From an uncultured Clostridia bacterium (lineage in GTDB: Bacteria; Bacillota; Clostridia; Peptostreptococcales; Anaerovoracaceae), in the NCBI GenBank assembly GCA_934281605.1, contig CAKQXD010000008.1, forward strand, positions 15,114-79,113: 64,000 bases of DNA. Reading direction: 5' to 3'. The notes beneath the pieces were generated by a model. It was given only the letters and a program-made list of their open reading frames with translations. It did no database searches and was not told the origin of the DNA. Of the stretch, positions 1 to 14,305 are shown one piece after another. Position numbers and translations under genes: made by a program. How positions within the stretch are numbered: the stretch's first letter is position 1; each line of letters opens with the position of its first letter.

Positions 1-535
1 TAACAAAAAGCTCCGCAGAAGCATGTTCATCGCAGTTTTACTGGCGCTGATGCTGGGAGTGACCACTTTCGCGCTGATCACTTCTATGGTGGAGGTCAAA
101 GACAATCACTTCGAAACCGGAGTAGTCAAGATCAACCTCAGCGACGGCGAGCCGGTCATCCGCGAGGACGAATACCTCTTTGAACCGGGCATGCGCGTGC
201 AGAAGAATTTCTTCATCGAAAACGAAGGCTCGATAGATGCTTACTATAAAATTTATCTGGAAGACGTCAAAGGCGATCTGGCAGATGTGCTGGAAGCGAC
301 CATTACCGAGAAAGAAAGCGGCAAGGTGCTTTACCAGGGCCTTGTCAGTGATCTGACGAGAGGCTCGGCGGCGGTGGACGATGGGACGCTGGCTGCCGGT
401 GAGCGCAAGGATCTGACCATTCTGTTCTACTTCCCGAAAGAGCGGGGCAACGAAGCGCAGGATAAGACGCTGTCCTTCCGGATGGGAGCAACTGCAACAC
501 AGGTAAGAAATAACCCGGGCCACAGTTTCGAATAA
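1..535 (+). CDS. TasA/camelysin-family secreted protein, 5' end truncated by window edge
   Basis: Frame of the ORF at 23 is open back to nt 2; residues encoded before Met23 (..NKKLRRS) continue the KKALRGS-hydrophobic-TTFAWFTD pattern of the downstream paralogs (here GVTTFALITS); LFEPG..NFFIENEGS and FRMGATATQ resemble TasA core motifs. Confidence 0.5.
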   Translation, partial: NKKLRRSMFIAVLLALMLGVTTFALITSMVEVKDNHFETGVVKINLSDGEPVIREDEYLFEPGMRVQKNFFIENEGSIDAYYKIYLEDVKGDLADVLEATITEKESGKVLYQGLVSDLTRGSAAVDDGTLAAGERKDLTILFYFPKERGNEAQDKTLSFRMGATATQVRNNPGHSFE

Positions 536-576
536 CACAGCACTAGAGATCAAGCAGCGAAGGAGAATTTTTTTCA

Positions 577-1851
577 ATGAAAAAAGTGTGGAACATTATC
601 AGAAAAATTATCGTGTGGGCGATCGTCGTATTCTCGCTGGGCATGATGGCATTCACCATTATTTCCGTCACGACGTTCGACCGTGCGGACCGCAGCGTAT
701 TTGGCTACAGCGCGTTCATCGTACTGTCGGATTCCATGAAGGCTACGGACTTTGATGCAGGAGACCTGGTTCTCATCAAGGAGACCGATCCCAGCACATT
801 AAAGGCAGGCGACATCATCTCGTTCCAGTCGCCGGATGAATCCAACTACGGCGAAATCGTGACTCATAAAATCCGTGAAGTCACAACGGATGACGAAGGA
901 AATCCAGGATTCATCACTTACGGAACAACGACTGATTCCAACGACCAGGGAATCGTCACCTATAATCTGGTAATCGGAAAATATCAGGGACATATTCCGA
1001 ACGTAGGAACTTTCTTTAACTTCCTCAAAACCGTACCGGGGTATTTCATCTGTATTTTCACACCGTTCTTCATCCTGATCCTGGTGCAGGCAAGAAACAG
1101 CATCAAGCTGTTCCGCAAGTACAAGAAGGAGCAGGTGGAAGAAATCCAGGCAGAAAAGAAATCGCTGGAAGAAGAACGGGCCAAATCGCAGGAGATGATG
1201 GAACAGCTGATGCAGATGCAGCAGGCTATGGAGAAAAATGGCGGCACGCTTCCGCCGGAATACCTGGCTCAGATGCAGGCGTCTCAATTTGCAAAGCCTC
1301 CGGCTGACGTTTCTGATACTGCAAAGAGCTCTGCCGACATTCCGAAAGCTGCGCCGCAGCCTGAGCCTCAGAATCCGGCTCCGGCAGACGTTACGCCAGC
1401 GCAGGCGGCATCGGCACAGTCGACCGCAGCGCAGGAAGCTCCGATAGCACCGGTAAGGTCAGAAAGACCGCAGGCTCAAGCACAGCTGCAGAGAACTGGT
1501 GCACCACAAAGACCAGTCACACCGGCAGCCTCGCCGCGATCGACAGCTCCGATCCCACCAGTAAGACCGGAAGCACCGAAACGGACTGTGACACCAGATA
1601 TGTCGCACAGACCGGCGGCTCCACAAAACCCGGTAACGCCGCCACCGGCCACTGCTCCCGTACATCCGGCTCCTGCCCCTCGGCAGAATCCGGCCCCGGA
1701 AGCCCCGACAAGGCCGGCATCTGCCGCGCCGAAGCACCCAGCGCAGCCAGCTTCGCAGCAGAGACCTGCTGTACCGGCAAGATCAGCCAGCAGAGCAGGA
1801 TTCGACGTCCGGTCCGTCGCCAGGGAAAAGAATGACCTGGAACAGAAATAG
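577..1851 (+). CDS. sipW: SipW-type (S26B, archaeal/ER-type) signal peptidase I with long low-complexity C-terminal extension
   Basis: N-terminal TM helix, VLSDSMKAT..GDLVLI..AGDIISF..VTHKI..FITYGTTTDSND matches the SipW pattern VLSGSMEP..GDL..GDVV.F..VTHRI..FITKGDNND (Ser-Met and His retained); second TM, then coiled-coil and roughly 250 aa Pro/Ala/Gln-rich tail; sits inside a TasA-like gene array. Confidence 0.6.
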   Translation: MKKVWNIIRKIIVWAIVVFSLGMMAFTIISVTTFDRADRSVFGYSAFIVLSDSMKATDFDAGDLVLIKETDPSTLKAGDIISFQSPDESNYGEIVTHKIREVTTDDEGNPGFITYGTTTDSNDQGIVTYNLVIGKYQGHIPNVGTFFNFLKTVPGYFICIFTPFFILILVQARNSIKLFRKYKKEQVEEIQAEKKSLEEERAKSQEMMEQLMQMQQAMEKNGGTLPPEYLAQMQASQFAKPPADVSDTAKSSADIPKAAPQPEPQNPAPADVTPAQAASAQSTAAQEAPIAPVRSERPQAQAQLQRTGAPQRPVTPAASPRSTAPIPPVRPEAPKRTVTPDMSHRPAAPQNPVTPPPATAPVHPAPAPRQNPAPEAPTRPASAAPKHPAQPASQQRPAVPARSASRAGFDVRSVAREKNDLEQK

Positions 1852-1879
1852 ACTCAAATAAATACACCTTAAAAAGACC

Positions 1880-1969
1880 CTCCGCTCACCACCCGGTGAG
1901 CGGAGATCAAAGGGCACGAACTGTCGAAGCTTTGCAGAAAAGCATAAATCGACCGCGCCTTTTGATCTC
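1880..1969 (+). other. structured intergenic element 1 (hairpin A CTCCGCTCACC/GGTGAGCGGAG plus 13-bp long-range stem GAGATCAAAGGGC/GCGCCTTTTGATCTC)
   Basis: Inverted repeats read directly; same two-part architecture recurs at 3268, 4627 and 5906 upstream of each paralog. Confidence 0.5.
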
Positions 1970-2061
1970 CGAGAGGGAGAAGCTCCTCTCCTCGAATCTC
2001 TGGAAAAATTTCGAGGGGGGGGTACATCGCACATCGTTATTTAAAATGGAGGAGCAAAACT

Positions 2062-3237
2062 ATGAACGAAAGCACGAAAACGAAAAAAGCACTCCGAGGC
2101 AGTCTGTTCGCATTATTCTTATGCATCGTACTGCTCATCGGAACGACCTTCGCTTGGTTTACAGACACTGCAAGTACAGGCGTAAACAAGATCCAGGCTG
2201 GGAATCTGGATGTGGAGCTGGAATACAGCCATGACATGGTAAAGTGGCAGGCGGCAAACGAGAATACTCAGATGTTTAATGACGACACTCTTTGGGAGCC
2301 GGGGCACACAGAGGTTGTATATCTCCGTGTAAAGAATGCAGGAAATCTGGCACTGAAATACAATATAGCTACAAACTCTTATGATATGGAAAGAGGAAAA
2401 AATGCTGCTGGTGATTTGTTCTATATTGATCAATATCTGAAGATCGGTACCGTGCAGACAAATGCTGCTTTTGCAAACCGCGAAGAAGCGATTGCAGCAA
2501 TCGCTGATACAGAGAAGACAATAGCAAAAGAAACTCCGATCAGTAAAGATTGGACTGTTCTGAAGGCTGGCGAAAAGAGTGCGCCAACTGCGGTTGTTCT
2601 CTATATGCCGACTACAGTTGGTAATGAAGCGAACAATGTTCAGTCTTGGCGTAAGCCTTCACTGAAAGGACTCGGACTGGTTGTAAATGCAACTCAGGCA
2701 ACTGTGGAATCTGATAGCTTCAATAATACATATGATGAAAACGCTGCAACGACGCTTTCAACAGTAAGTTATAGTTCAGGACAGCATAACATTACTGGAA
2801 AAATTCAGGCAAATGGCAGTTTTGGTGCAGTTCAGGCTGAGGGAACAGCTCAGTTTACCATAGATGCTGACGTCTATGCTGTGTACAATAATGGCGGTGC
2901 CATGGCTGTTGAAGCTGGTGGAACCAGTAGGGTTATCATCAATGGAGGAGACTTCCGTCAGGTAGGAGTACCGAAGGATGATTCTGCATGCGATTTGATT
3001 TATGCAACGGACAGTGCGACTATCGAGATCAAGGGTGGAACTTTTAAAGCCGTTAAACCTGCCAATACTCTCAATGTTAAGGACACAGATAGAGGTAGTG
3101 CGAAAATTATCGTTAAAGGCGGATCTTTCTACAAATATGATCCTTCCAATCCTACACTGGGGGATAATGAAGTCTTTGTAGCTGCTGGCTATCATGTAGA
3201 AAAGAGCGGTGACTGGTATAAGGTAGTTGCTGATTAA
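2062..3237 (+). CDS. SipW-cognate signal peptide protein: TasA-like N-domain fused to C-terminal beta-helix-like domain (paralog 1)
   Basis: MNESTKTKKALRGSLFALFLCIVLLIGTTFAWFTDTASTGVNKIQ, cf. TasA GGGTWAAFND/camelysin GGGTFAFFSD; LWEPG..KNAGNLALKY core motif; C-terminal GG-T/F repeats and conserved end PSNP..G....FVAAGY.V; RBS GGAGG upstream. Confidence 0.65.
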   Translation: MNESTKTKKALRGSLFALFLCIVLLIGTTFAWFTDTASTGVNKIQAGNLDVELEYSHDMVKWQAANENTQMFNDDTLWEPGHTEVVYLRVKNAGNLALKYNIATNSYDMERGKNAAGDLFYIDQYLKIGTVQTNAAFANREEAIAAIADTEKTIAKETPISKDWTVLKAGEKSAPTAVVLYMPTTVGNEANNVQSWRKPSLKGLGLVVNATQATVESDSFNNTYDENAATTLSTVSYSSGQHNITGKIQANGSFGAVQAEGTAQFTIDADVYAVYNNGGAMAVEAGGTSRVIINGGDFRQVGVPKDDSACDLIYATDSATIEIKGGTFKAVKPANTLNVKDTDRGSAKIIVKGGSFYKYDPSNPTLGDNEVFVAAGYHVEKSGDWYKVVAD

Positions 3238-3267
3238 GAAAAAATCATTAGCTGATTCAAATAATGT

Positions 3268-3349
3268 AATGCTAATAGTTCCGCTCACCGATAGGTGAGC
3301 GGAAAGTAAAGGACATATTACCACATAAAATCGCGATGGATACTGTGTC
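3268..3349 (+). other. structured intergenic element 2 (hairpin A TTCCGCTCACC/GGTGAGCGGAA plus perfect 15-bp stem GGAAAGTAAAGGACA/TGTCCTTTACTTTCC)
   Basis: Read directly; stem B differs from element 3 at three positions, each with a compensatory change. Confidence 0.5.
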
Positions 3350-3405
3350 CTTTACTTTCCGATAAAAAGATATTGTATTAAGAAATGTGAGAAAGGAAGA
3401 AGCAA

Positions 3406-4611
3406 ATGAACGAGAGCACGAAAACAAAAAAAGCGCTCCGCGGCAGTCTCTTTGCATTATTCTTATGCATCGTACTGCTGATCGGAACGACATTCGCATG
3501 GTTCACGGACACTGCAAGCACAGGTGTGAACAAGATCCAGTCCGGTAAGCTGGATGTGGAACTGCAGTACAAGGACGGTGACACCTGGAAAAATGCAGAA
3601 GGACAGACTTTGGATTTTCAGAAAGCTGAAAAAGGAGCCGGAGAGGAAATCCTTTGGGAACCGGGATGCACGTACAAACTGCCGGAAATCAAAGTTGTTA
3701 ACAACGGAAACCTGGCACTGAAGTACAAACTGGAAGTGACAGGAATCGAAGGTGATAAAAAGCTGAATGAAGTCATCGACTGGACGATTGCTGGTGGTGA
3801 ATTAGATGCGGAGAAGCCTTTGGCAGCAAGTGCATCGTCTGATCCGATGACGATTCAGGGACACATGCAGGAATCTGCAGGTAACGAATATCAAAATCTG
3901 TCCATTGAAGGCATCAGCATTACTGTATATGCAACCCAGGATACAGTTGAAAACGACAGCTTTAATAATCAGTATGATAAGAACGCAACTTATCCGGTGA
4001 AGTCAGCCAATGAGCTGAAAGAAGCGCTTGCTAACGGTGGCAGTGTTTCCGTATCGAAGGATATTAAGACAGATAATATTGGTGATACGGCTGCAGATCG
4101 TGTGATTATTTCAAATCCGACGACGCTGAATTTAGATGCAAAGATCGTAAGCCCGGATGACATGGGGAATAACAATACGAATTTCTGTGCGTTGATTGTT
4201 GATGCGAATACGACGATCAATGCGACTGCAAATGGTGGTATTGATACAGGCAAAAATGGCGGATATGCAATCAATGTTCGCAAGGGCGCAAATCTGACGA
4301 TCAACAATGGCTACTATTACGGTGGCGGTACTGCGGTTCAGGTACAGGAAGGCACACTAACGATCAACGGCGGTACCTTTGCCTGCGAGCCGTTCGGCGC
4401 TCCATATGGTTACAACTTCCTCATCAACTGCGTGGACTCCGCTTACAAAAATGGAACTGCAAAAGTTATCATCAAAGGTGGTACATTCATTAACTTCAAT
4501 CCTTCCAATAACTCCGCAGAAGGAGCAGGAACGAGCTTCGTAGCTGACGGCTACACTGTGAAGTCTGAAGTAAAAGGTAATGATACTTATTATACTGTAG
4601 TAAAGAAATAA
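3406..4611 (+). CDS. SipW-cognate signal peptide protein: TasA-like N-domain plus beta-helix-like C-terminal domain (paralog 2)
   Basis: First 45 aa identical to paralog 1 (synonymous nucleotide differences); LWEPGCTYKLPEIKVVNNGNLALKY; C-terminal SANELKEALANGGSVSVSKDI.. then GG-T repeats; ends FVADGYTVKSEVKGNDTYYTVVKK. Confidence 0.65.
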   Translation: MNESTKTKKALRGSLFALFLCIVLLIGTTFAWFTDTASTGVNKIQSGKLDVELQYKDGDTWKNAEGQTLDFQKAEKGAGEEILWEPGCTYKLPEIKVVNNGNLALKYKLEVTGIEGDKKLNEVIDWTIAGGELDAEKPLAASASSDPMTIQGHMQESAGNEYQNLSIEGISITVYATQDTVENDSFNNQYDKNATYPVKSANELKEALANGGSVSVSKDIKTDNIGDTAADRVIISNPTTLNLDAKIVSPDDMGNNNTNFCALIVDANTTINATANGGIDTGKNGGYAINVRKGANLTINNGYYYGGGTAVQVQEGTLTINGGTFACEPFGAPYGYNFLINCVDSAYKNGTAKVIIKGGTFINFNPSNNSAEGAGTSFVADGYTVKSEVKGNDTYYTVVKK

Positions 4612-4626
4612 ATTTGCTTACACATA

Positions 4627-4699
4627 TTCCGCTCACCGGTGGTGAGCGGAAAGGAAAGAATATTTTACTGGATAATTAGTATGGTATTCTTTCCTTTCC
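4627..4699 (+). other. structured intergenic element 3 (hairpin A plus perfect 15-bp stem GGAAAGGAAAGAATA/TATTCTTTCCTTTCC)
   Basis: Read directly; covaries with element 2. Confidence 0.5.
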
Positions 4700-4766
4700 G
4701 AAGGGAATTGCGTATTGGATTAGATTTACTTTATGGAACGAAATCTAAGAAAGGAAGAAGAAGCAA

Positions 4767-5870
4767 ATGAACGAGAGCACAAAAACGAAAAAAGCACTCC
4801 GCGGCAGTCTCTTTGCATTATTCTTATGCATCGTACTGCTGATCGGAACAACATTCGCATGGTTCACGGATACTGCAAGCACTGGGGTGAACAAGATCCA
4901 GTCTGGTAAGCTGAAAGTTGGACTTCAGTACAAAGATACTGATGGTAACTGGAAGGATGCAACTAAGACAACTTTGGACTTTGTAAAAGCTAAGGATGCT
5001 AAAGATGAAGCAATTTTATGGGAGCCTGGTTGTACTTATGAATTACCACAAATCAAAGTTGTAAATGAAGGTAATTTAGCTCTGAAATATGTTATTAAAG
5101 TAACTGGAATTCAGGGTGATGCTAAGTTGAATGAAGTAATTGACTGGACTGTAGATGGTAATGCATTAGATAAAGATCAAACGCTGTTAGCTAATAAAGA
5201 ATCTGATCCAATGACAATCAAGGGACATATGCAGGAGTCTGCAGGTAACGAATATCAGGATCTGTCGATTGATGGAATCACCATTACTGTATATGCAACG
5301 CAGGATACAGTTGAAAGCGACAGCATTGATAATCAGTACGATAAGGATGCTCAGTACACTGAAACAATCGCAGAGGGCAAAACTTTTACAAGTGGTACCC
5401 ATACTATCAACACTGGTGTTACTGCAACTAAAGCTAATGCGATTGCTGTAAAAGCAACAGGTTCTAGCACCAATGTGACAATCACTGGAGGAACCTTTAA
5501 CGGTGGTTCTGGTGGAAATAATCAGTGCATCCACGTTGCCAATGGTGCAACTGTTACGATCAAGGATGGCACATTTACAGTTGGTGGAGATGCTAAGGGC
5601 GAAGGAAACTCTGTTATTGAGAGCAATGGTGGAAATATCATCATCGAAGGTGGATTTTTCCAGACAGACTATTCTTGGAGAGGTTTCTATTATGTTCTGA
5701 ATCAGCAGAACAATAACCCGGGAACAATCACTGTTAAGGGCGGTACATTCGTAAATTACGATCCAAGCAAGGGTGATGATAACCTGGGTGGAAACTTCGT
5801 AGCTGACGGCTATAAAGTAGTTTCCGAAACTCACGGATCCGATACTTGGTACAAAGTCGTTGTAAAATAA
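4767..5870 (+). CDS. SipW-cognate signal peptide protein: TasA-like N-domain plus beta-helix-like C-terminal domain (paralog 3)
   Basis: Same N-terminus; repeats TITGGTFNGG / TIKDGTFTVGG / IIEGGFF / TVKGGTF; ends FVADGYKVVSETHGSDTWYKVVVK. Confidence 0.65.
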   Translation: MNESTKTKKALRGSLFALFLCIVLLIGTTFAWFTDTASTGVNKIQSGKLKVGLQYKDTDGNWKDATKTTLDFVKAKDAKDEAILWEPGCTYELPQIKVVNEGNLALKYVIKVTGIQGDAKLNEVIDWTVDGNALDKDQTLLANKESDPMTIKGHMQESAGNEYQDLSIDGITITVYATQDTVESDSIDNQYDKDAQYTETIAEGKTFTSGTHTINTGVTATKANAIAVKATGSSTNVTITGGTFNGGSGGNNQCIHVANGATVTIKDGTFTVGGDAKGEGNSVIESNGGNIIIEGGFFQTDYSWRGFYYVLNQQNNNPGTITVKGGTFVNYDPSKGDDNLGGNFVADGYKVVSETHGSDTWYKVVVK

Positions 5871-5905
5871 GATGTAACAATCAAATTATCAAGATTTCAA
5901 TTTCC

Positions 5906-5970
5906 ACCCGCCTTTTGGCGGGCGGGAATCAAAGGGCACAGAGCGCGAGCGGTTTGTGTGCCTTTTGATT
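5906..5970 (+). other. structured intergenic element 4 (hairpin CCCGCC/GGCGGG plus 14-bp stem AATCAAAGGGCACA/TGTGCCTTTTGATT)
   Basis: Read directly; shares the ATCAAAGGGCAC / GCCTTTTGAT arms with element 1, each with a single G-U position. Confidence 0.5.
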
Positions 5971-5998
5971 TCTGAAAATAACAGAAGGAGATTCTGAT

Positions 5999-7417
5999 AT
6001 GAAACGGAGCAGTACAACGAAAAAAGCTCTTTTTATAAGTACGTGTGCATTGTTGTTCAGCCTGCTGATGATGGCTGGCAGTACCTTTGCATGGTTCACA
6101 GACAGCGTCAGCACCGGCAGCAACAAGATTACGACCGGATCGCTGGACGTGCAGCTTTTGCATCAAAATCAGCATGTGGACAGCAGCGAAAAGGTGACGC
6201 AGAGCACGCTTTTGTTCACCGATAAAGATGGAAAAGCGATAAACTGGGAACCGGGCGCGGCGGCATACGAAAACTTTACAGTAAAAAACAACGGCAATCT
6301 GGCACTGAATTACAGACTGGCGCTGGATCTGAACAACGCCAACACCATCGCCGGAACGGACAAATCCTTAAAGGATGTTTTAAAAGTCAAAATCGTGAAA
6401 GGCGGAGTGTCTGCATCAGACGTGAAGGAAGATGCGCTGAAGAATGCAACGAACTTTGCAGCGGTGACGGACGGACAGATCAACATTCCTGCAGCAGCAG
6501 GAGATGCCCGCGAGCAGAAGCTTGTCAAGGATGCAAAGAGCGCAACCTACGGAGTCATTCTTTACTGGCAGCCGGATCCGGAGCGCGATTATGAGTATAA
6601 CCTGACTAATTATCCAAACAAGGATTCCAATAACAATGAGAAGGATCTGACCAGCGATGGCAACGATCATCTTTCGATTGATCTGGGGATCAGCCTGGCG
6701 GCAACGCAGGCGATGGAAGAGGCGGACAGTGCTGGCAATACCTATGATCAGGGCGCGATTTACCCGGCGTCCAGCGCGGCGGAGCTGAAAGACGCATTAA
6801 GCAAGGCTGGCAAGGGCGATGTTGTGGAACTGACGGGAAATATTGCACTGGATTCGGATCTGAGCATCAGCAGGGATGTGACCATCAGAAGCACTGGCGG
6901 TGCGGTGATCTCCGGGGAATCCGTTGTGATCGGTTCGACCGCGGATGTGACGCTGCAGGGCATCACGTTCAAGTCGCCGAGGTCTTCGGGGAACAAGGGA
7001 ATCAGCCTCAAGACTTCTGATTATGCCGGCAAGCTGGTTCTGGACAAGTGTACTTTTGAGGAGCCGCAGTGGAGCAGTCTCAAGATCGATGCAAAGGCTT
7101 CGGCCAGCGTTACCATAAAGAACTGCACGTTCGATGCATCCGGTACAGCGGCGGGTCATAAGTGTGATAAAGAATCGGATTCTTCTGCACTGGCGGATGG
7201 CGCACATCGGATCCTTTCCATTTCGGGAGCTTCGGGAACAGAGCTGACGATGACGGACAATACGTTTAAGGGGCTGGATAAATGCGATGCTTCTTCGGCT
7301 GTTCTGATCAGCGGGATCACCGGAAGCGGACTGAGCGTGAAGGGAAATACAGCGGATACGCTTTCCAAAGTGAGTATCGGTGCGAACGGAAGCACCAGCG
7401 GTTTTACGAAAAAATAA
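5999..7417 (+). CDS. SipW-cognate signal peptide protein: TasA-like N-domain plus pectin-lyase-fold-like parallel beta-helix domain (paralog 4)
   Basis: GSTFAWFTDSVSTGSNKITTGSLDVQL; NWEPG..VKNNGNLALNY; C-terminal AELKDALSKAGKGDVVELTGNIAL.. followed by repetitive V/I-T/S-G strands typical of right-handed beta-helices. Confidence 0.6.
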   Translation: MKRSSTTKKALFISTCALLFSLLMMAGSTFAWFTDSVSTGSNKITTGSLDVQLLHQNQHVDSSEKVTQSTLLFTDKDGKAINWEPGAAAYENFTVKNNGNLALNYRLALDLNNANTIAGTDKSLKDVLKVKIVKGGVSASDVKEDALKNATNFAAVTDGQINIPAAAGDAREQKLVKDAKSATYGVILYWQPDPERDYEYNLTNYPNKDSNNNEKDLTSDGNDHLSIDLGISLAATQAMEEADSAGNTYDQGAIYPASSAAELKDALSKAGKGDVVELTGNIALDSDLSISRDVTIRSTGGAVISGESVVIGSTADVTLQGITFKSPRSSGNKGISLKTSDYAGKLVLDKCTFEEPQWSSLKIDAKASASVTIKNCTFDASGTAAGHKCDKESDSSALADGAHRILSISGASGTELTMTDNTFKGLDKCDASSAVLISGITGSGLSVKGNTADTLSKVSIGANGSTSGFTKK

Positions 7418-7426
7418 CGAGAGGAC

Positions 7427-8143
7427 GTGTTACTGTTGAAAAGACGACAGAACAATTTCATAAAGGACGGGACGGCAGCGGAGTCTTCCGTGTGGAAGAT
7501 GCTGCTCCCTTCGTTTCTGGGAATCATTGTCTGCACCATTTGTCTGGCGGGCATGACCTGGGCGTGGTTTACCAGCGGAGTGCAGTCGCAGTCCACGATA
7601 ACGGCGGACGAGTATTCCCTCAACGAGACCATTACGCCGAAAGCGGGCGGTCAGGCATTAGAAAAGTCCAGTGAAGGAACTTATGCGCTGGCTGCCAATA
7701 CGACGTATGTTGTAAAGGTAACGCCGACGGTGACGCCGCAAAGCGGAGGCTACTGCATCGTCAAGATCATTTCAGACGGCAGTGAGGCCAAGTATTATAC
7801 GCAGTCACTGAATGCCAGCCAGGAATTTAACTTCCTGATTTCCAATGGCAGCAAGGCGGTTTCCTGTCAGGTGATTGCAGCATGGGGAACGCCGGATGCT
7901 TCGAAGACGGCGAATAATACGCTGCTGGGATCGGGTTCGACGATCACAGTCAATGGCGGTGCCCCAGCAGATGTTACACAGCCAGCACAGGATTCGGTAA
8001 AATCCGACTCTAATAAGACGAACTCCGATTCCGATGCCTCCAATGCTGCAAAGGATTCCAACGTATCCAGCGGCAGCGATCAGAAAGATGATGGTGCTGC
8101 GAATACGACCCAGAAGAGCGATCAGGAAACGACTGGGGAGTAA
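7427..8143 (+). CDS. small SipW-cognate signal peptide protein with Ser/Asp/Asn-rich C-terminal tail (paralog 5)
   Basis: CLAGMTWAWFTSGVQSQS motif after a TM segment; start is 9 nt after the stop of paralog 4; polar low-complexity tail. Confidence 0.5.
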   Translation: MLLLKRRQNNFIKDGTAAESSVWKMLLPSFLGIIVCTICLAGMTWAWFTSGVQSQSTITADEYSLNETITPKAGGQALEKSSEGTYALAANTTYVVKVTPTVTPQSGGYCIVKIISDGSEAKYYTQSLNASQEFNFLISNGSKAVSCQVIAAWGTPDASKTANNTLLGSGSTITVNGGAPADVTQPAQDSVKSDSNKTNSDSDASNAAKDSNVSSGSDQKDDGAANTTQKSDQETTGE

Positions 8144-8199
8144 AGCGAGCTTGGAACCCTGCAATTAAGTAGTATTGCGCGACTTCCCTCAAGTCATAA

Positions 8200-8228
8200 T
8201 TGACATTACAATCTGTTTGAATTATAAT
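8200..8228 (+). promoter_or_regulatory. consensus sigma-A promoter TTGACA-17-TATAAT
   Basis: TTGACA at 8200-8205, 17-nt spacer, TATAAT at 8223-8228. Confidence 0.5.
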
Positions 8229-8234
8229 AACATT

Positions 8235-8312
8235 AACCAAAAGGGTGGTTATGTTCAAGTTGTTCACAACACAAAAAACACCGAAGTGCGATTTTCGGTG
8301 TTTTTTATTTTT
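8235..8312 (+). ncRNA. candidate small RNA (about 78 nt) from consensus promoter to intrinsic terminator
   Basis: Promoter at 8200-8228; terminator hairpin CACCGAA/TTCGGTG plus T-run at 8278-8312; only a 35-codon ORF (ATG 8251) that runs through the terminator; no downstream same-strand gene. Confidence 0.3.
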
Positions 8313-8650
8313 TGATACCATAGGCTGGGAACGCTCCGGCACGTTTTTATGATTTTATCGCAGTATATTGGGGAAAAATCATAGTGACGGGAGCAGGATT
8401 CGCGTAAGGATGAAAATCTGGAAATTATTAGGATGATTTTCATCCGAAATTGCGATCCGCCTAAAATAAGGATGATTGGATAAAAAACCACCGCCTAAAA
8501 CAGCCCGATTCATCCTTATTCCTGGTCCTCACGCGAATAAGGATGAATCGCTCCGAACCGTAGTACCCCGAACTGGAATTGTCCCGACCCGAAGCTGCCC
8601 GGACCTGGAGCACCCCGCCCCACAGCACCTGAGAATAAGCCTGAACTACC

Positions 8651-9190
8651 CTAAACCCGCGGCAGCCTCCTTAAAATCAGCCAGGAGATGATGCCAATGG
8701 CGGCGCCGCTGGCGACGCCGGAGAAGATGAGCACCGGGAAGTAGGCGAACATTTTGAGATTAGAGACCAGGAACGAAGCTACCAGGATCTGCCCCAGGTT
8801 GTGGGCGACGCCGCCTGCGATGGAGACTCCGGTGACGGAAAACCAGCCGGTCTTCTGCAGCAGGAACATGACCAGGAAGCTGAGAAGAGCACCTGCCATG
8901 GAATAAGCAGCGCCAAAGAGCCCGGTAAACAGCAGACCGGCGATCAAAACCCGAACGATGTTGACCGTCAGTGCGTAGCGCGGGCCCAGATAATACAGGG
9001 TGACGATGATCACCAGGTTGGCGATCCCCAGTTTGATGCCGGGAATGGCAGGCGTGAAGGGGATCAGGAATTCAATGTACGAAAAAATCAGCGCCAAAGA
9101 GACCATGAGTGCGGTCAATGCTGTGCGCCGCGCGTGGCTGTCGTGTGAAGTTGTCGGCGTTTGCTGCCGTTTCATGCAGTCGTTTTTCAT
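8651..9190 (-). CDS. Gx transporter family membrane protein (heptaprenyl diphosphate synthase component I-like)
   Basis: about 5 TM helices, Gly-rich; typical partner of NusG-domain-II protein and ApbE. Confidence 0.5.
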   Translation of the reverse strand: MKNDCMKRQQTPTTSHDSHARRTALTALMVSLALIFSYIEFLIPFTPAIPGIKLGIANLVIIVTLYYLGPRYALTVNIVRVLIAGLLFTGLFGAAYSMAGALLSFLVMFLLQKTGWFSVTGVSIAGGVAHNLGQILVASFLVSNLKMFAYFPVLIFSGVASGAAIGIISWLILRRLPRV

Positions 9191-9203
9191 ATTTGTTCCT
9201 TAT

Positions 9204-9566
9204 CTACCTTGCCACCGAGTCATACTCCGATGTGCCGCCTTTGATTTCCAGCATGACTTTGTTGGGCAGGCACACGATGCTCTCCCCCGTTTGGGAGATG
9301 GCGTGCTGTTCAACGCAGTCCTGTCCGCGGCAATCGGAAAAACTCATTGAAACCTTACCGTTCTTTATGGTAATCTTATTTATATGTGAATCCTGTTTTA
9401 CTTCGATCGTGCGATTCTCGGCGAGGGAGTAGGTCCCGAAGACTTTCCCGGCTCTGGTGATGACCAGTTCGCTGCCCGCCGTCTGCCCGAAGGAGAAAAA
9501 CCAGGACATGGCCAGCCCGATGACGATCAGGGCCAGAGCCAGTATCACATCCGCTTTTTTTATCAT
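9204..9566 (-). CDS. NusG domain II-containing protein (DUF1312)
   Basis: N-terminal TM then beta-rich domain; ATG at 9564-9566 with GGAGG RBS; the ORF-track start is upstream at an alternative codon. Confidence 0.5.
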   Translation of the reverse strand: MIKKADVILALALIVIGLAMSWFFSFGQTAGSELVITRAGKVFGTYSLAENRTIEVKQDSHINKITIKNGKVSMSFSDCRGQDCVEQHAISQTGESIVCLPNKVMLEIKGGTSEYDSVAR

Positions 9567-9593
9567 AACAATACCTCCGGAGGTACCAGGAAT

Positions 9594-10640
9594 ATGCATA
9601 TAACATCAAGAACCGGCACATGGATCAAACTTCTGCCGGCCATACTGATAACAGTACTCATCATTATAACACAAACCGGGTGCGGCGAAAAAGACCCTGT
9701 TTCCAAATCTGACTTCTGTCTGGACACCACCTGCGATATCAAGCTCTACGATATGGGGTCCGGTGAGGCCAGCAAGATCCTGGACGGCGCATTCGAAGAG
9801 ATCGACAAGTACGAAAATCTCATGAGCAAGACCATCGAAGGCAGTGACGTCTACAAGATCAATCACGCCCAGGGGCAGCCGGTGGAAGTCTCGAAAGACA
9901 CCCTTAAGGTTATCAAAATGGGAATCGAAATGGGCGATCTCTCCGGCGGCATGTTCGATATTACCATCGGTAAAGTGTCCTCTCTCTGGAATTTCAACGG
10001 AGACGATCCGAAGGTGCCGGAGCAGTCGGATCTCAACGACGCACTCACGACGGTAGGCTATAAAAACATCGTTATCGACGGCAGTTCCGTCAGTCTGAAA
10101 AATCCTCGGGCGGAGCTGGATCTGGGCGGCGTGGCCAAGGGCTATATCGCCGACAGAGTCTGCGACTATCTGGAGAAGCAAGGCGTAGAAAAAGCCGTCA
10201 TCAACCTGGGCGGCAACGTGGCCGTGCTGGGAGAAAAGGACAAGGATACCCCGTGGAACATCGCCATCGAGCGCCCTTACAGCGACCGGACGGAGATGAT
10301 GGGTTACGTTTCGGTCAAGGATGCGACGGTAGTAACGTCCGGCATTTACGAGCGAAAATTCGAACAGGACGGCGTCCTCTACCATCACGTGCTGGATCCT
10401 CATACCGGTTATCCGGTGGACTCGGATCTGGAAGCGGTGACCATCCGCGCGGCGCGGGGCAATTCCGGTTTCTGCGACGGCCTATCCACCGTTTGTCTGA
10501 TGCTGGGCCGGGATAAAGCGCAGGCCCTGATCGAGACGTTACAGAAGGAGCATCCGGAAATGAAGCTGGAAGCCGCCTTTATCGATAAAAACGACACCAT
10601 GACCCAGACCGACGGCATGGACGTCAAGAAGGATGAATAA
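9594..10640 (+). CDS. apbE: FAD:protein FMN transferase ApbE (lipoprotein)
   Basis: Lipobox ITQTGC; GGVAKGY and HHVLDPHTGYP motifs. Confidence 0.75.
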   Translation: MHITSRTGTWIKLLPAILITVLIIITQTGCGEKDPVSKSDFCLDTTCDIKLYDMGSGEASKILDGAFEEIDKYENLMSKTIEGSDVYKINHAQGQPVEVSKDTLKVIKMGIEMGDLSGGMFDITIGKVSSLWNFNGDDPKVPEQSDLNDALTTVGYKNIVIDGSSVSLKNPRAELDLGGVAKGYIADRVCDYLEKQGVEKAVINLGGNVAVLGEKDKDTPWNIAIERPYSDRTEMMGYVSVKDATVVTSGIYERKFEQDGVLYHHVLDPHTGYPVDSDLEAVTIRAARGNSGFCDGLSTVCLMLGRDKAQALIETLQKEHPEMKLEAAFIDKNDTMTQTDGMDVKKDE

Positions 10641-10641
10641 G

Positions 10642-11655
10642 ATGACAAAACACATCGATGTGATCGTGCCCTGCTACAACGAGGAGAGCAGCCTGGATCG
10701 TTTCTGGAAAGGATCCGGCGCGGCGTTTTCGCAGATCAAAGGGTACGCATTCCGCTATATTTTCATAGACGACGGGAGCACCGACGGGACGCTGGACAAG
10801 ATCCGCCAGCTGGCGTCTTTGCAGGATGCTGCAAAGACCGATGCTCCGGGAGCACCGGTCTCTCCGGAGGAATTTGCACCGCAGGTCTCCTACATTTCCT
10901 TCAGCCGGAACTTCGGCAAGGAGGCCGCCATGTACGCCGGTTTGCAGGCGTCACGCGGGGACTTTGCAGTGATCATAGACGCTGACCTGCAGCATCCCCC
11001 GGAATTAGTAGAAAAGATGATCCGCATCGTAGAGGAAACCGGATGCGACAGCTGCGCCGCGCGGCGTGTGAGCCGCAAGGGCGAGCCGAAGATCCGCAGC
11101 GCTTTTGCACGGGCATTTTACAAATTGATGAACCGGTACAGCGACATCGAGATCGTGGACGGAGCGGTGGATTTCCGGCTTATGAGCAGGCAGATGGTCA
11201 AAGCCATCGTGCAGATGCCGGAGCGGCAGCGGTTTTCCAAGGGGATCTTTTCCTGGGTCGGCTTTGATACGGAATGGATCGAATTTGAAAACGTGCAGCG
11301 GATCGCAGGCGAGAGCAAGTGGACCCTGTGGGGACTGGTGAAATACGCCCTGGATGGGTTCATCGACTTTGCAGAAGCTCCCCTGAAACTGGTGGGGGTG
11401 CTGGGTGGACTGACCACCGTATGCTCCGCCATATACTTCCTCATCGAATTTTTTAAGACGGTGATCATCGGCCGGGATACGCCGGGATATGCGTCCACCA
11501 TATGCCTGATTCTGTTTTTTGGCGGACTGATCATCGCCATCTTAAGCCTGATGGGCGAGTACATCGGCAGGATGTATCTGGAAACGAAAGGAAGACCGAT
11601 TTATATAGAAAAGGAAAGCAATATAGATGAAGAGACGAAGAGAGAGACCGATTAA
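10642..11655 (+). CDS. family 2 glycosyltransferase (GtrB/CsbB-like polyprenyl-phosphate sugar transferase)
   Basis: VIVPCYNEE, FIDDGSTDGT, DADLQHPP motifs; two C-terminal TM helices; ATG 10642 preferred over 10633 on RBS spacing. Confidence 0.7.
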   Translation: MTKHIDVIVPCYNEESSLDRFWKGSGAAFSQIKGYAFRYIFIDDGSTDGTLDKIRQLASLQDAAKTDAPGAPVSPEEFAPQVSYISFSRNFGKEAAMYAGLQASRGDFAVIIDADLQHPPELVEKMIRIVEETGCDSCAARRVSRKGEPKIRSAFARAFYKLMNRYSDIEIVDGAVDFRLMSRQMVKAIVQMPERQRFSKGIFSWVGFDTEWIEFENVQRIAGESKWTLWGLVKYALDGFIDFAEAPLKLVGVLGGLTTVCSAIYFLIEFFKTVIIGRDTPGYASTICLILFFGGLIIAILSLMGEYIGRMYLETKGRPIYIEKESNIDEETKRETD

Positions 11656-14305
11656 GATCGGAGCCTCCTGCAAAGAAATCGTACAACGAATTAAACTGAT
11701 TTTGGCGGCGTTCTGCCTGCCGGTGCTTTTGATGCTGCTGGCATTCCTGGTGATGGGTATCTATCCGGCGGGAGAAAACCAGATCGCCGTCATCGACATG
11801 TACCACCAGTACGTTCCATTCCTGGGCGAACTGCAGAACAAGCTGCAGAGCGGCGGCAGTCTGTTTTATATGTGGAACGGCGCTGGCGGCAGCAACTTCT
11901 GGAACCTGCTGGCCTACTATGGAGCCAGTCCGCTGAACCTGATCCTGGTGCTGTTTCCGAAGAAGTTCCTCATGGAAGGGGTCACGCTGATCCTGCTGCT
12001 CAAGATCGGACTTTGCGGGAGCACCATGGCGGTATATTTGCGGACGGTTTTCTGGGACAGCCAGGGCCGGCGTGCCGATGTGTCTCTGGTGGGCTTTGCG
12101 ACCCTGTATGCGCTGTGTTCCTACGTGATGGCGTATTACTGGTGCATCATGTGGATGGATGCGGTTGCACTGCTGCCTCTTTGCATCCTGGGTCTCCACA
12201 GGATCCTGGAAGGGGACAGCGGGGTATTTTATACCGTGTGCCTGGCGCTGACGGTGTTCATCAATTATTACATGGCCATCATGGTCTGCATTTTTATCCT
12301 GTGCTACTATCCGGTGCTGTATTTTATCAAGGTGCAGGGGGAGAGCGCGGGGCATTTTTTCAAGACGACGGGACGGGCTGTGGGTTATTCCCTGCTGGGA
12401 GTCGCTATGGCGGCGGTCATGCTGCTGCCGACCTGGCTCAGCATGCAGTCCACGTATTATATTTCGGCGGATATGCCGCAGGAGACGGAGTTTTACAACG
12501 ATCTTCTGGATATCCTCAACCAGCTGCTGCCTAACGCACAGCTGACTTACCGGGAGGGACTGCCGAATCTCTACTGCGGGATGTTCGTGGTGATCCTGCT
12601 GGTGTTTTACTGGATCAGCAAGACGATTTCTTTGCGGGAAAAACTGCTCAACGGAGCGTTTCTCGTTTTCCTGATCCTGAGCCTGAATATCAACAAGCTG
12701 GACTTTATCTGGCACGGATTCCATTTCCCTAATCAGCTGCCGTATCGTTATACCTTTGTGATCTGCTTCCTGCTTATCGGGATGGCGTATAAAGTCTTTC
12801 TGCGGGTGGATGAGATCCGGATCCGGCATCTGTGGATCGTTCTGGCGGCGGGCGGCGGCTATTACGTGCTGGCGCAGAAGATCCTGACGGAGCATATCAA
12901 AGACATGGATCTGTTCGTTTACAGCGGACTGGCATGGCTGGCGCTGTACGGCGGGGTGCTGATCCTTTACAAAAAAGGACTGCTTCAGAAGAATCTGCTG
13001 ATCGTGCTGACGGTGATCCTTCTGACCTGCGAAATGGTGTCCAACACCTGCACGTCTCTGGACAAGGTGGGAACGACGCTTCGCAGCAATTACTACGAGA
13101 ATGAAGCGGATGTGACCAAGCTGATCGAAGCCACGGAAGGCACGGGCGGCGATTTCGGGCGGACGGAGATGAACGATAATTATATCCTCAACTGTCCGGC
13201 TATGTATCATTATAAAGGGATCTCCCAGTTTTCCTCTTCTGTTAATGCCAATGCGACGGCTCTGATGGAGCAGATCGGCGTGGAAGGGGAGCCGAGCAAG
13301 AACCGGTTCAATTACAATCAGACGGATCCGGTGACTAATGCAATGCTCAATATCCGGTACCTCATCGGCAAGAATCTGCCCATCGAAGACAGCGATTTTA
13401 CCCTCATCGGAAGATCGGGAAACAGCAGATTGTATGAGAGCAAGTATCCATTGTCTATCGGCTATATGACGGCGGGAACGATCCGGACGTGGAACTATGA
13501 ACAGGATAACCCGTTTCGGGTGCTGGACGATTACGTGAGAGCGGTGACGGAAAACAAGTACACCCGTATTTTCAGCGAGGTGGAGGCGTCAGATGTGGCT
13601 TCCTCCAATGTGGAGCTGACCAGCACGGGAACCGGCACGTGGGACTGCAAGCTGAACAATGAAGATAAAAAAAGCAAGACGGTCCTGAACTACGAGGCAA
13701 AAACGACGGGTAAACAGTATCTTTTCATCGAAGCGGACGAGGCGGATACCATTCTGGTCAGCCGGGAAGGCAAGGACGGCAAGACGGAGATCCGCAACGA
13801 CTGCGGCTCCATCGTCAATATCGGCGAGATGGAGCAGGGCGATGTGTTTACCGTTACGATAGAATACAAAGCAGGAAAGATGGGCTCCGTGGTAAGCCAC
13901 GTCTGCACCATGGATGACGCCATCTGGCAGGATGCGTATAAAACGCTTTCTGCTGATTTGCTGGACGTGACCGATTACGGGGATTCCTATTTGAAGGGTA
14001 AGATCCACGTGGATCAGGACGGCGTGTTTGTGACGTCGATCCCGTATGAAGCGGGTTGGACGTTAAAGGTAGACGGGCGCACTCGCGAAATCAACGAACT
14101 GGTAGGCGGAGCATGGATATCCACCAGCCTGTCAGCCGGGGAGCACGAGATCGAGCTGAGCTTCCGGCCGCCGGGACTGATCGCAGGACTGCTGATCACG
14201 CTGGCCTGCATCGGACTGCTGATCGCTGCAGAATGGTGGCGGAGAAGACGCTTAACCTCTCCACCGCTCGATGAGAGTCCGGAAGAGCTGTGGGATCTCC
14301 ACTAG
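11627..14305 (+). CDS. YfhO family membrane glycosyltransferase
   Basis: 892 aa, many N-terminal TM helices and large C-terminal extracytoplasmic domain; paired with the GtrB-like GT2 as in CsbB/YfhO systems. Confidence 0.65.
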   Translation: MKRRRERPIKIGASCKEIVQRIKLILAAFCLPVLLMLLAFLVMGIYPAGENQIAVIDMYHQYVPFLGELQNKLQSGGSLFYMWNGAGGSNFWNLLAYYGASPLNLILVLFPKKFLMEGVTLILLLKIGLCGSTMAVYLRTVFWDSQGRRADVSLVGFATLYALCSYVMAYYWCIMWMDAVALLPLCILGLHRILEGDSGVFYTVCLALTVFINYYMAIMVCIFILCYYPVLYFIKVQGESAGHFFKTTGRAVGYSLLGVAMAAVMLLPTWLSMQSTYYISADMPQETEFYNDLLDILNQLLPNAQLTYREGLPNLYCGMFVVILLVFYWISKTISLREKLLNGAFLVFLILSLNINKLDFIWHGFHFPNQLPYRYTFVICFLLIGMAYKVFLRVDEIRIRHLWIVLAAGGGYYVLAQKILTEHIKDMDLFVYSGLAWLALYGGVLILYKKGLLQKNLLIVLTVILLTCEMVSNTCTSLDKVGTTLRSNYYENEADVTKLIEATEGTGGDFGRTEMNDNYILNCPAMYHYKGISQFSSSVNANATALMEQIGVEGEPSKNRFNYNQTDPVTNAMLNIRYLIGKNLPIEDSDFTLIGRSGNSRLYESKYPLSIGYMTAGTIRTWNYEQDNPFRVLDDYVRAVTENKYTRIFSEVEASDVASSNVELTSTGTGTWDCKLNNEDKKSKTVLNYEAKTTGKQYLFIEADEADTILVSREGKDGKTEIRNDCGSIVNIGEMEQGDVFTVTIEYKAGKMGSVVSHVCTMDDAIWQDAYKTLSADLLDVTDYGDSYLKGKIHVDQDGVFVTSIPYEAGWTLKVDGRTREINELVGGAWISTSLSAGEHEIELSFRPPGLIAGLLITLACIGLLIAAEWWRRRRLTSPPLDESPEELWDLH

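Follow-up and report, generated by a model that had tools for sequence, protein, structure and literature searches.

Why should one bacterial gene cluster carry the same structured element behind gene after gene? The question is raised by a 64,000-nt stretch of DNA (the window) from an uncultured Clostridia bacterium of the family Anaerovoracaceae (GenBank assembly GCA_934281605.1, contig CAKQXD010000008.1). One co-directional gene cluster on the + strand fills window positions 1–8300. It encodes a SipW-type signal peptidase followed by four TasA-like paralogs with SipW-dependent signal peptides, which we refer to as P1 to P4. SipW-dependent TasA-like proteins form extracellular fibers and biofilm matrix. 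The spacers 3′ of sipW, P1, P2, and P3 each carry a two-part inverted-repeat element, consisting of a hairpin (“A”) and an abutting long stem (“B”). We refer to the pair as the “A/B element.” Judged by its covariation, A/B is a real, widespread, and unannotated RNA family in gut Clostridia; the kind of element is known (3′ stem-loops), but the family is absent from Rfam. Our favored explanation, to which we assign a probability of roughly 0.5, is that A/B is a stem-loop module of the type known from selective processing and stabilization of RNA (SRPS) that protects or punctuates the 3′ ends of cistrons and sets the stoichiometry of the paralogs. Here, we describe the element, its conservation, and its position relative to genes, and we discuss what it may do.

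Anatomy of the element

The four copies in the window are laid out as follows.

1880–1905, + strand: copy 1, hairpin A (CTCCGCTCACC-ACCC-GGTGAGCGGAG), a perfect 11-bp inverted repeat 28 nt past the sipW stop codon; −21.6 kcal/mol alone
1901–1971, + strand: copy 1, stem B (CGGAGATCAAAGGGCACG...CGCGCCTTTTGATCTCCG), its loop containing a structured insert of ~35 nt; −36.0 kcal/mol
1880–1975, + strand: copy 1, whole element; covariance-model match of 41.4 bits, E = 3.7e-7
3279–3304, + strand: copy 2, hairpin A (TTCCGCTCACC-GATA-GGTGAGCGGAA), 41 nt past the P1 stop codon; −20.8 kcal/mol alone
3300–3361, + strand: copy 2, stem B (CGGAAAGTAAAGGACA...TGTCCTTTACTTTCCG); −28.4 kcal/mol
3279–3365, + strand: copy 2, whole element; covariance-model match of 42.3 bits
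4627–4651, + strand: copy 3, hairpin A (TTCCGCTCACC-GGT-GGTGAGCGGAA), 15 nt past the P2 stop codon; −18.7 kcal/mol alone
4647–4700, + strand: copy 3, stem B (CGGAAAGGAAAGAATA...TATTCTTTCCTTTCCG), with three fully compensated differences from copy 2; −29.3 kcal/mol
4627–4704, + strand: copy 3, whole element; covariance-model match, copy 3 being part of the model seed
5903–5926, + strand: copy 4, hairpin A (core CCCGCC-TTTT-GGCGGG at 5907–5922, extendable), ~31–36 nt past the P3 stop codon; −17.7 kcal/mol
5923–5974, + strand: copy 4, stem B (CGGGAATCAAAGGGCACAGAG...TTGTGTGCCTTTTGATTTCTG), with the P4 start codon 24 nt downstream; −25.7 kcal/mol
5902–5978, + strand: copy 4, whole element; covariance-model match of 49 bits, E = 3e-9

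A sequence-only reading of this DNA had described four copies of A and B at these positions, and both an inverted-repeat search and RNA folding agree with it. In copies 1–3, hairpin A has perfect 11-bp arms, (C/T)TCCGCTCACC and GGTGAGCGGA(G/A), closed by a loop of 3–4 nt; within the 64 kb, exact matches to GGTGAGCGGA occur only in the spacers of these three copies. Hairpin A of copy 4 belongs to another subtype, which recurs at the orthologous position in three related loci (L001, L002, and L005; L numbers denote loci). Stem B likewise comes in two subtypes. It had been described as 13–15 bp enclosing 15–40 nt; it is longer than that, comprising 18–24 bp (with G·U pairs and one mismatch) that enclose 6–35 nt. 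Where the B arms of copy 2 and copy 3 differ, at three places, the opposite arm compensates every time, as first read: 5′-arm positions 7, 12, and 14 pair with 3′-arm positions 9, 4, and 2. Copies 1 and 4 do share a different arm pair, ATCAAAGGGCAC...GCCTTTTGAT, with a G·U pair.

RNA folds of the four spacers have z scores of −7.0, −7.5, −6.4, and −6.0 for copies 1–4, and not one of the 200 dinucleotide shuffles made for each was as stable. Folding energies range from −18 to −22 kcal/mol for A, from −26 to −36 kcal/mol for B, and from −40 to −48 kcal/mol for A and B together. The two helices stand base to base: A, of ~10 bp, carries a UUCG-type loop, and B, of ~18–22 bp, carries a loop of variable size, while the flanking RNA enters and exits at the A/B junction. 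The 3′ arm of A (86% purine) and the 5′ arm of B (71% purine) form one continuous purine-rich strand, which pairs with two pyrimidine-rich arms, i.e., the 5′ arm of A (87% pyrimidine) and the 3′ arm of B (50% U). By eye only, this arrangement resembles Shine-Dalgarno (SD)/anti-SD mimicry: GGAGG, GGUGA, and AAAGG all occur on the purine strand, while the pyrimidine arms look similar to the 3′ tail of 16S rRNA. The likeness may be no more than a consequence of pairing purine-rich with pyrimidine-rich arms.

Spacer 1 contains a further structure (window 1971–2022), in which the same pyrimidine stretch is contested by two pairings, GAGAGGGAG...CTCCTCTCC (~1971–1995) and CCTCTCCTCGAA / TTCGAGGGGGGG (1985–1996 / 2010–2021). 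The latter involves a run of eight G at 2015–2022. In contigs that share the 14-nt upstream flank, the run has seven or eight G; in other flank groups it has 8/9 or 8/9/10. Either a hypermutable, phase-variable tract or sequencing error could give such variation.

Conservation and covariation

Homologs of P2 number in the thousands. A protein-seeded scan with P2, taking one genome per GTDB species, yielded 74 loci. They come from Brotomerdimonas (the closest named relative, with 84% identity), Lentihominibacter, Yeguia, Eshraghiella (Butyrivibrio) crossota, Faecalibacterium, Agathobacter, and many metagenome-assembled genomes of Oscillospiraceae and Eubacteriales; by NCBI taxonomy, the loci span at least the Eubacteriales and Lachnospirales. 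The spacers behind their paralogs carry the two-part element, most commonly as CCTCTCCGCC-TTCG-GGCGGAGGGG followed directly by GGGCAATCAAAGGGCATA...TGTGCCTTTTGATTGCCC, with covarying subtypes such as GGCTACCGAAGCGGATAA/TTATCCGCTTCGGTAGCC and GGGGCGATCCAAGGGCACAAG/....

We aligned 42 short-loop copies as a seed to which the window contributed only copy 3. The consensus of the seed consists of two adjacent helices with compensatory change in 15 of 23 predicted pairs. When the full 27-pair structure is laid on this alignment, 94.8% of cells are paired, compared with 84% in shuffles and ~50% with slid partners. A covariance model built from the seed finds 96 sense-strand matches in 42 of the 74 loci, in addition to the four window copies, and it recovers copies 1, 2, and 4, which lie outside the seed, at E = 3e-9 to 4e-7. 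Scanning the 64 kb with the model gave no + strand match beyond the four copies; on the minus strand, copies 1 and 4 give weak echoes (E = 0.13–0.38), and these are the only other matches in the window. In an alignment of 88 copies (87 distinct) to the model, 97.1% of cells form pairs, and two-sided change occurs in 24 of 27 pairs. None of 500 shuffles equals this, and slid controls are 45–51% paired. The 88-copy alignment was fitted to the model and hence leans towards structure; the independent MAFFT alignment gives the same picture. Covariation and pairing so far above the controls indicate that the structure is real and under selection. The covariation argument of the sequence-only reading was thus correct and is much stronger across genera than inside the window, and the covariance-model search that it proposed does find homologous structured spacers in related genomes.

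Two A·U pairs of an AAG/UUU box are essentially invariant, and 72 of 87 copies retain a neighboring G·U wobble. Hairpin A mostly has UUCG or CUCG as its loop. The loop enclosed by B can be as short as 6 nt or as long as 130 nt, while the stem itself stays at ~18–22 bp. Identity in helix columns is 89% within a locus and 73% between loci, although adjacent proteins are only ~45–59% identical. This within-locus likeness points either to putative gene conversion of the whole junction block or to a putative trans-acting reader shared by the copies.

The family has no counterpart in Rfam. A search of window positions 1–12000 with Rfam 15 at E values up to 10 gave no overlap with the element except chance microRNA and small RNA matches far below threshold; a scan of 14 related loci at Rfam gathering scores gave nothing but a cyclic di-GMP-I (c-di-GMP-I) riboswitch elsewhere in L060. 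In full-text searches of the literature, we found no RNA motif linked to sipW, tasA, or camelysin. As a separate observation, P2-like proteins (60–84% identity) with near-identical A/B elements span several families and orders, namely the Yeguiaceae, Lachnospiraceae, Oscillospiraceae, and unplaced Eubacteriales, which suggests that the cluster as a whole has spread horizontally among bacteria of the gut.

Position relative to genes

The position of A/B is set by the gene upstream. All 96 matches lie on the gene strand, and in each case a TasA-like paralog or sipW has its stop codon 6–120 nt before the element, with a median distance of ~14–21 nt. A context-blind DNA scan of metagenome contigs, using the 20-nt core of the commonest subtype, found this core 152 times, in 120 human-gut contigs. 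An upstream open reading frame (ORF) could be evaluated for 148 of the matches, and in every case the match lies behind a TasA-like ORF, at a median of 14 nt, which makes A/B specific to the TasA-like gene family. Four matches in IMG/VR contigs likewise lie 3′ of TasA-like ORFs. A phage origin of the element was considered and rejected, given the genes upstream of these four matches, the strand asymmetry described below, and the exclusive association with one gene family.

Downstream, the next start codon lies at 12–31 nt in 23 of 86 copies, at 38–109 nt in 37, and at 196–239 nt in 24. Among the 23 close copies, which include window copy 4 (24 nt), an SD-like sequence stands ahead of the next start codon. 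With the next ribosome-binding site (RBS) so near, transcription would have to read through the element. Even most elements that appear to be the last in their array have, 25–30 nt further on, the RBS of a gene for a small membrane protein or an AWF-motif protein; a true array-end element, in L053, is followed by a canonical terminator ~190 nt further downstream.

The small membrane-protein gene (motif YRYWRRELRCHYLCLIPFVTERNV) is itself conserved. It starts ~25–30 nt past A/B in many arrays (L016 8020–8766, L026 9149–10171, L039 4441–5430, L048 6955–7842, and L069 3632–4606), with shorter forms in L018, L021, L022, L030, L045, and L063; the window cluster has no counterpart.

Molecule and strand

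In which molecule does A/B act? Among non-Watson-Crick cells of the alignment, G·U or U·G occurs 267 times and A·C or C·A 24 times, an ~11-fold difference, and the model's minus-strand scores are 40–50 bits lower at the same sites. A palindrome acting in duplex DNA would disfavor both kinds of mismatch alike, and a structure acting on the minus strand would be biased the other way. The G·U excess and the score asymmetry together place the predicted function in the sense-strand transcript, as an RNA structure. Single-stranded DNA of the top strand as the acting molecule is a formal possibility.

A proposed stabilizing module at cistron ends

Among the roles first suggested for these spacers was that of an intercistronic processing or stability element. 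The strand, the anchoring to the stop codon, the expected read-through, and the likeness to SRPS stem-loops favor such a role; the processing itself and its effect on stoichiometry are what we infer. In the mechanism that we propose, the cluster would be transcribed largely as a long RNA from a promoter 5′ of the first gene. If an endonuclease cut within the element or downstream of it, or if transcription occasionally terminated in B, the double hairpin would be left at the 3′ end of the upstream cistron, where its predicted stability of −40 to −48 kcal/mol would block 3′-to-5′ exonucleases. Such a block could give each paralog message its own half-life and hence lead to unequal amounts of the paralogs.

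The distribution of promoter-like and terminator-like features can be set beside this proposal. A consensus scan for sigma-70-like promoters found none in the window spacers. A near-consensus promoter-like sequence, TTGACT-17-TAGAAT, lies 5′ of the first gene in L197, a longer contig that is 100% identical to the first 9 kb of the window. A promoter in or just past B was also considered, since TTGAT of the B 3′ arm resembles a −35 element; it was rejected because the CGGUAGC and GGAUCGC subtypes do not preserve this sequence and the consensus scan was negative. Terminator-like features show no difference between copies whose downstream gene would depend on read-through and copies followed by a long leader (p = 0.37–0.98). 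Junctions without A/B exist in strains of the same species, and an element that is missing at some junctions is presumably modulatory rather than essential.

Several observations weigh against a role limited to stabilization. A pure exonuclease block needs stability only. It does not explain the invariant AAG/UUU box, or why 72 of 87 copies retain the G·U wobble; nor does it explain the constant abutment of A and B, or helix identity of 89% within loci as against 73% between them. The stability of A/B exceeds that of every reported SRPS stem-loop. In 64 of 88 copies, the 8 nt behind the GC clamp of the B 3′ arm include at least five U, so that some termination may occur. Lastly, the long leaders of other loci contain weak promoter-like and operator-like sequences, so that some arrays may comprise several transcription units.

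Possible leaky termination

The explanation that survives best beside a stabilizing module, although we consider it unlikely, is that A/B is a leaky intrinsic terminator. The sequence-only reading had set standard terminators aside on the grounds that no hairpin is followed by a U-tract. This holds past the complete helices, but right behind the GC clamp, stem B has a 3′ arm rich in U (UUUUGAUUUC, CUUUACUUUC, CUUUCCUUUC). The inner part of B, as a GC-clamped hairpin, and the U-rich distal 3′ arm (consensus UUUUGAUUGC) would then terminate a fraction of transcripts, with read-through feeding the downstream paralogs. Subsequent pairing of the A-rich proximal 5′ arm with the U tail, with A stacked on top, would give a fully paired 3′ end. 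The inner hairpin has a median folding energy of −8.5 kcal/mol and a median loop of 6 nt. The 8 nt behind its clamp include at least six U in 45 of the 88 copies and four or fewer in 24, and the first three U are nearly invariant. Window copy 4 is terminator-like in this respect, with the tail UUUUGAUUUCU and −10.7 kcal/mol, and a terminator has been predicted 3′ of bsaA in the Clostridium perfringens sipW-bsaA cluster, which yields mRNAs of 1.4 and 7.3 kb (PMC7395162).

Other properties of the family fit termination poorly. The lower stem, which would have to be the U-tract, covaries at G/C positions (GAUUGC with GCAAUC; GGAUCGC; CGGUAGC), and termination needs no such thing. Entire subfamilies have only three or four U in this position (UUUCGGUAGC, CUUCGGUUGC), and in window copies 2 and 3 the inner hairpins are weak and AU-rich (−5.7 and −4.8 kcal/mol), with loops of 14–24 nt. 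No U run follows the complete A or the complete B, whereas genuine terminators of this genome carry long U runs. Copies at which read-through would be obligatory had been expected to have weaker terminator-like features; as described above, no difference was found. Moreover, P4 and P5 would run short of transcript behind four such elements in a row. With downstream RBSs so near, any termination would be at most partial.

A possible recognition site in double-stranded RNA

A/B could instead be a sequence-specific signal in double-stranded RNA, an explanation for which we hold out rather little hope. The AAG/UUU box and the G·U wobble, set in about two turns of helix that stack on a clamp capped by UUCG, would be bound or cut by RNase III or by another RNA-binding protein. 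A trans-acting factor of this kind would decide gene by gene which TasA-like paralogs are expressed or translated, perhaps together with strain-variable poly-G leaders. Several features favor this reading: A·U is invariant at two positions and the wobble is widely kept; B keeps its length, with a loop of anything from 6 to 130 nt; and A and B always abut, yielding a quasi-continuous helix of ~30 bp. The helices are also more alike within genomes than between them (89% versus 73%), despite protein identities of 45–59%. However, the clusters examined encode no candidate RNA-binding protein. The likeness within loci could arise equally from gene conversion of junction blocks, since the 5′ ends of the adjacent genes are 87% identical, and the window carries two subtypes of A and two of B.

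The attenuation proposal

The sequence-only reading took A and B, because they overlap, to be mutually exclusive as in an attenuator; such a switch would toggle expression of the downstream gene. In the window, 4–5 nt are indeed common to both helices, and the shared CGGA(A/G) is complementary to both flanks. Nevertheless, the helices coexist in folding models: the seven innermost base pairs of A and at least 13 of those of B each have an ensemble probability of ~1. Only the shared nucleotides are partitioned, 31–45% to A and 55–84% to B, and the modeled junction appears to slide rather than switch. Across the family, the extra pairs formed when B is extended into A are kept in 93%, 69%, and 38%, for an overlap of ~1–2 bp. 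Hairpin A is too stable for switching to be needed or possible, and the position of the element is set by the upstream stop codon, not by the downstream start codon, which lies 12–239 nt away. Conservation resides in the helices rather than in unpaired sensor nucleotides, and there is no leader logic. An attenuator switch is therefore highly improbable.

The proposal of a DNA element, and strain variation of the array

Recombination sites for paralog shuffling had also been proposed, and whether paralog content varies between strains is a question that bears on them. It does vary. We compared contigs that encode an identical P2 (L195–L201) and found that paralog number and content differ within the species. 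In L195 and L196, three other paralogs (390, 392, and 457 aa) replace P1, SipW is shorter (346 versus 424 aa), and there is no A/B behind sipW or behind the gene for the 457-aa protein. In L198–L201, yet another combination of paralogs is present. Homology breaks at two mapped points, one inside P1 (~3099) and one in the leader, 17 nt past B (~3378). Recombination thus shapes these arrays, but A/B is not singled out as its site. The array is a hotspot of strain-level variation (L195/L196 2894–6932 and L198 332–2836, relative to window 1852–3405).

The proximity of one breakpoint to B, the strain differences themselves, and the homogenization of junction blocks within arrays are the points in favor of a DNA-level element, whether an attC-like or shuffling recombination site or a mobile palindromic repeat such as a repetitive extragenic palindromic (REP) sequence or a miniature inverted-repeat transposable element (MITE). 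Both mapped breakpoints fall outside A and B, and the one in P1 lies within coding sequence. No integrase is found among the called genes of the loci examined. Judged by reading only, there is no GTTRRRY core and there are no extrahelical bases. The helices are perfect, with G·U allowed on one strand only, and a duplex-DNA palindrome would show neither the 11-fold tolerance of G·U over A·C nor the strand asymmetry of the model score. Finally, a dispersed repeat, be it a REP, a bacterial interspersed mosaic element (BIME), or a MITE, is hard to reconcile with only four copies, all in the array, in 64 kb and with 148 of 148 metagenome copies 3′ of a TasA-like ORF. We give a DNA-level role next to no credence.

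The gene cluster and its leaders

The genes and other features of the cluster are as follows.

23–535, + strand: 3′ part of a Peptidase_M73/TasA-like gene
577–1851, + strand: sipW-type signal peptidase with a long Pro-rich tail, preceding copy 1 (NCBIfam TIGR02228, NF046067)
2062–3237, + strand: P1, SipW-dependent signal-peptide paralog (TIGR04088; weak Peptidase_M73)
3406–4611, + strand: P2, SipW-dependent signal-peptide paralog (TIGR04088; weak Peptidase_M73)
4767–5870, + strand: P3, SipW-dependent signal-peptide paralog (TIGR04088; weak Peptidase_M73)
5999–7417, + strand: P4, SipW-dependent signal-peptide paralog (TIGR04088; weak Peptidase_M73; Beta_helix domain)
7427–8143, + strand: short AWF-motif protein
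8273–8306, + strand: canonical intrinsic terminator at the cluster end, with a 14-bp stem and then a long T run, in contrast to A/B

P1 and P3 are 45% and 59% identical to P2, respectively, and a search of the PDB at E values up to 1 gave no sequence relative of P2. While the whole proteins are 45–59% identical, the first 150–166 nt of P1, P2, and P3 (2062–2227, 3406–3571, and 4767–4913), which encode the signal peptide and an AWFTD motif, are ~87% identical at the DNA level. This suggests gene conversion of, or strong constraint on, a junction block comprising the element, the leader, and the signal peptide.

Leaders between B and the next gene fall into recognizable forms. A conserved long leader occupies spacers of ~205–240 nt past B (L045 5775–6000 and 7557–7782; also L012, L015, L025, L029, L040, L046, L047, L057, L067, and L069). 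It starts with an SD-like sequence and an ATG that opens a mini-ORF or an RNA motif (ATGAAAACTGCACAATCGGCAATTTGCACCAC), followed by a run of 6–11 G and TA; the length of the G run sets the frame and the stop codon of the mini-ORF. In the middle, an operator-like palindrome, TTAGTCA-N3-TGACTAA, overlaps a weak promoter-like site, TTGACT-16-AAAAAT. The leader ends with GATACCTCCGTTTTGTCGGC, which can pair with the G run, then a hairpin, an A run, and the RBS of the next paralog. Short leaders 3′ of B have the motif (A/G)TATTG-N-(A)TTAGA or ATTGAA ~35–45 nt before the start codon (window 3371–3385 and 4723–4737; L028 ~7340–7383; L016, L022, L025, and L063). In several genera, they also have an inverted repeat, TGTAAnCAC...GTGnTTACA. 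The motif or the repeat could be an operator, a promoter of a non-sigma-70 type, or a further RNA hairpin.

The c-di-GMP-I riboswitch mentioned above (RF01051; 72 bits versus a gathering score of 35) lies at L060 1628–1713 (+ strand), 5′ of a homologous TasA-like array, suggesting that at least some such clusters may be under c-di-GMP control. An Rfam scan found no c-di-GMP-I riboswitch in strains of the window's own species.

Implications

Gut Clostridia have large, strain-variable arrays of TasA-like genes, and A/B offers a testable handle on post-transcriptional control of subunit ratios. If A/B does stabilize cistron ends, the SRPS principle would reach a second class of extracellular assembly beyond cellulosomes. 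If the conserved box is instead a recognition site, A/B would represent a new RNA-protein or RNA-nuclease interaction and a new class of cis-regulatory RNA. A/B would add a well-supported family to RNA databases, with ~90 distinct sequences and heavy covariation, and, being compact and portable, it could serve to tune the expression of clostridial operons.

Comparison with known systems

Intrinsic terminators with an A-tract 5′ and a U-tract 3′ of the hairpin share with A/B a GC-clamped hairpin, a U-rich 3′ flank, and a complementary A-rich 5′ flank. In A/B, however, the pairing of the flanks extends over 10 bp and covaries at G/C, and there are often too few U. Moreover, a second hairpin always abuts B, and genes follow within 12–31 nt.

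REP/BIME sequences of E. coli and other intercistronic stabilizers (malE-malF, pap), in the accounts cited in PMC4423207, guard the upstream segment of a transcript from 3′ exonucleases, leading to differential expression. The shared features are the intercistronic hairpins and the protection of upstream RNA, which for A/B is the proposed role. As described there, REP sequences are dispersed genome-wide in unrelated operons, whereas A/B is confined to one gene family in a fixed orientation.

The C. perfringens sipW-bsaABCRSD cluster is closer in gene content. A terminator has been predicted 3′ of bsaA, and Northern blots revealed a 1.4-kb bicistronic mRNA and a 7.3-kb mRNA, the latter interpreted as read-through (PMC7395162). 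Both systems combine a SipW peptidase with TasA/BsaA-type proteins, and in C. perfringens a structure after the subunit gene appears to split short from read-through transcripts. The bsaA element differs in being described as a predicted ordinary terminator, and we set it beside A/B by description only.

The closest parallel is the cip-cel cellulosome operon of C. cellulolyticum. Its SRPS stem-loops, with folding energies of −6.6 to −31.8 kcal/mol and mostly without U runs, lie 3′ of selected genes, shield processed transcripts from 3′ exonucleases, and set subunit stoichiometry, while downstream genes are still transcribed; orthologous stem-loops are conserved between species (PMC4423207; PMC8219983), and a predictor of such elements, SLOFE, is available (PMC8219983). 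A/B occurs in the same class, Clostridia, and in the same kind of setting, i.e., a co-directional cluster for subunits of an extracellular assembly. It likewise lies at the 3′ end of genes, lacks a classical U run, and is conserved between species, and the genes downstream of it are presumably still transcribed. The two are likened here by position, strand, stability, and the lack of a U run, A/B being known from its sequence alone. They differ in four respects: (i) A/B has two abutting helices rather than one; (ii) A/B is much more stable, with −40 to −48 kcal/mol as against −6.6 to −31.8 kcal/mol; (iii) A/B is one homologous family, tied to a single gene family and found after nearly every paralog; (iv) A/B is conserved in sequence, with its invariant box and G·U wobble, across at least two orders of Clostridia.

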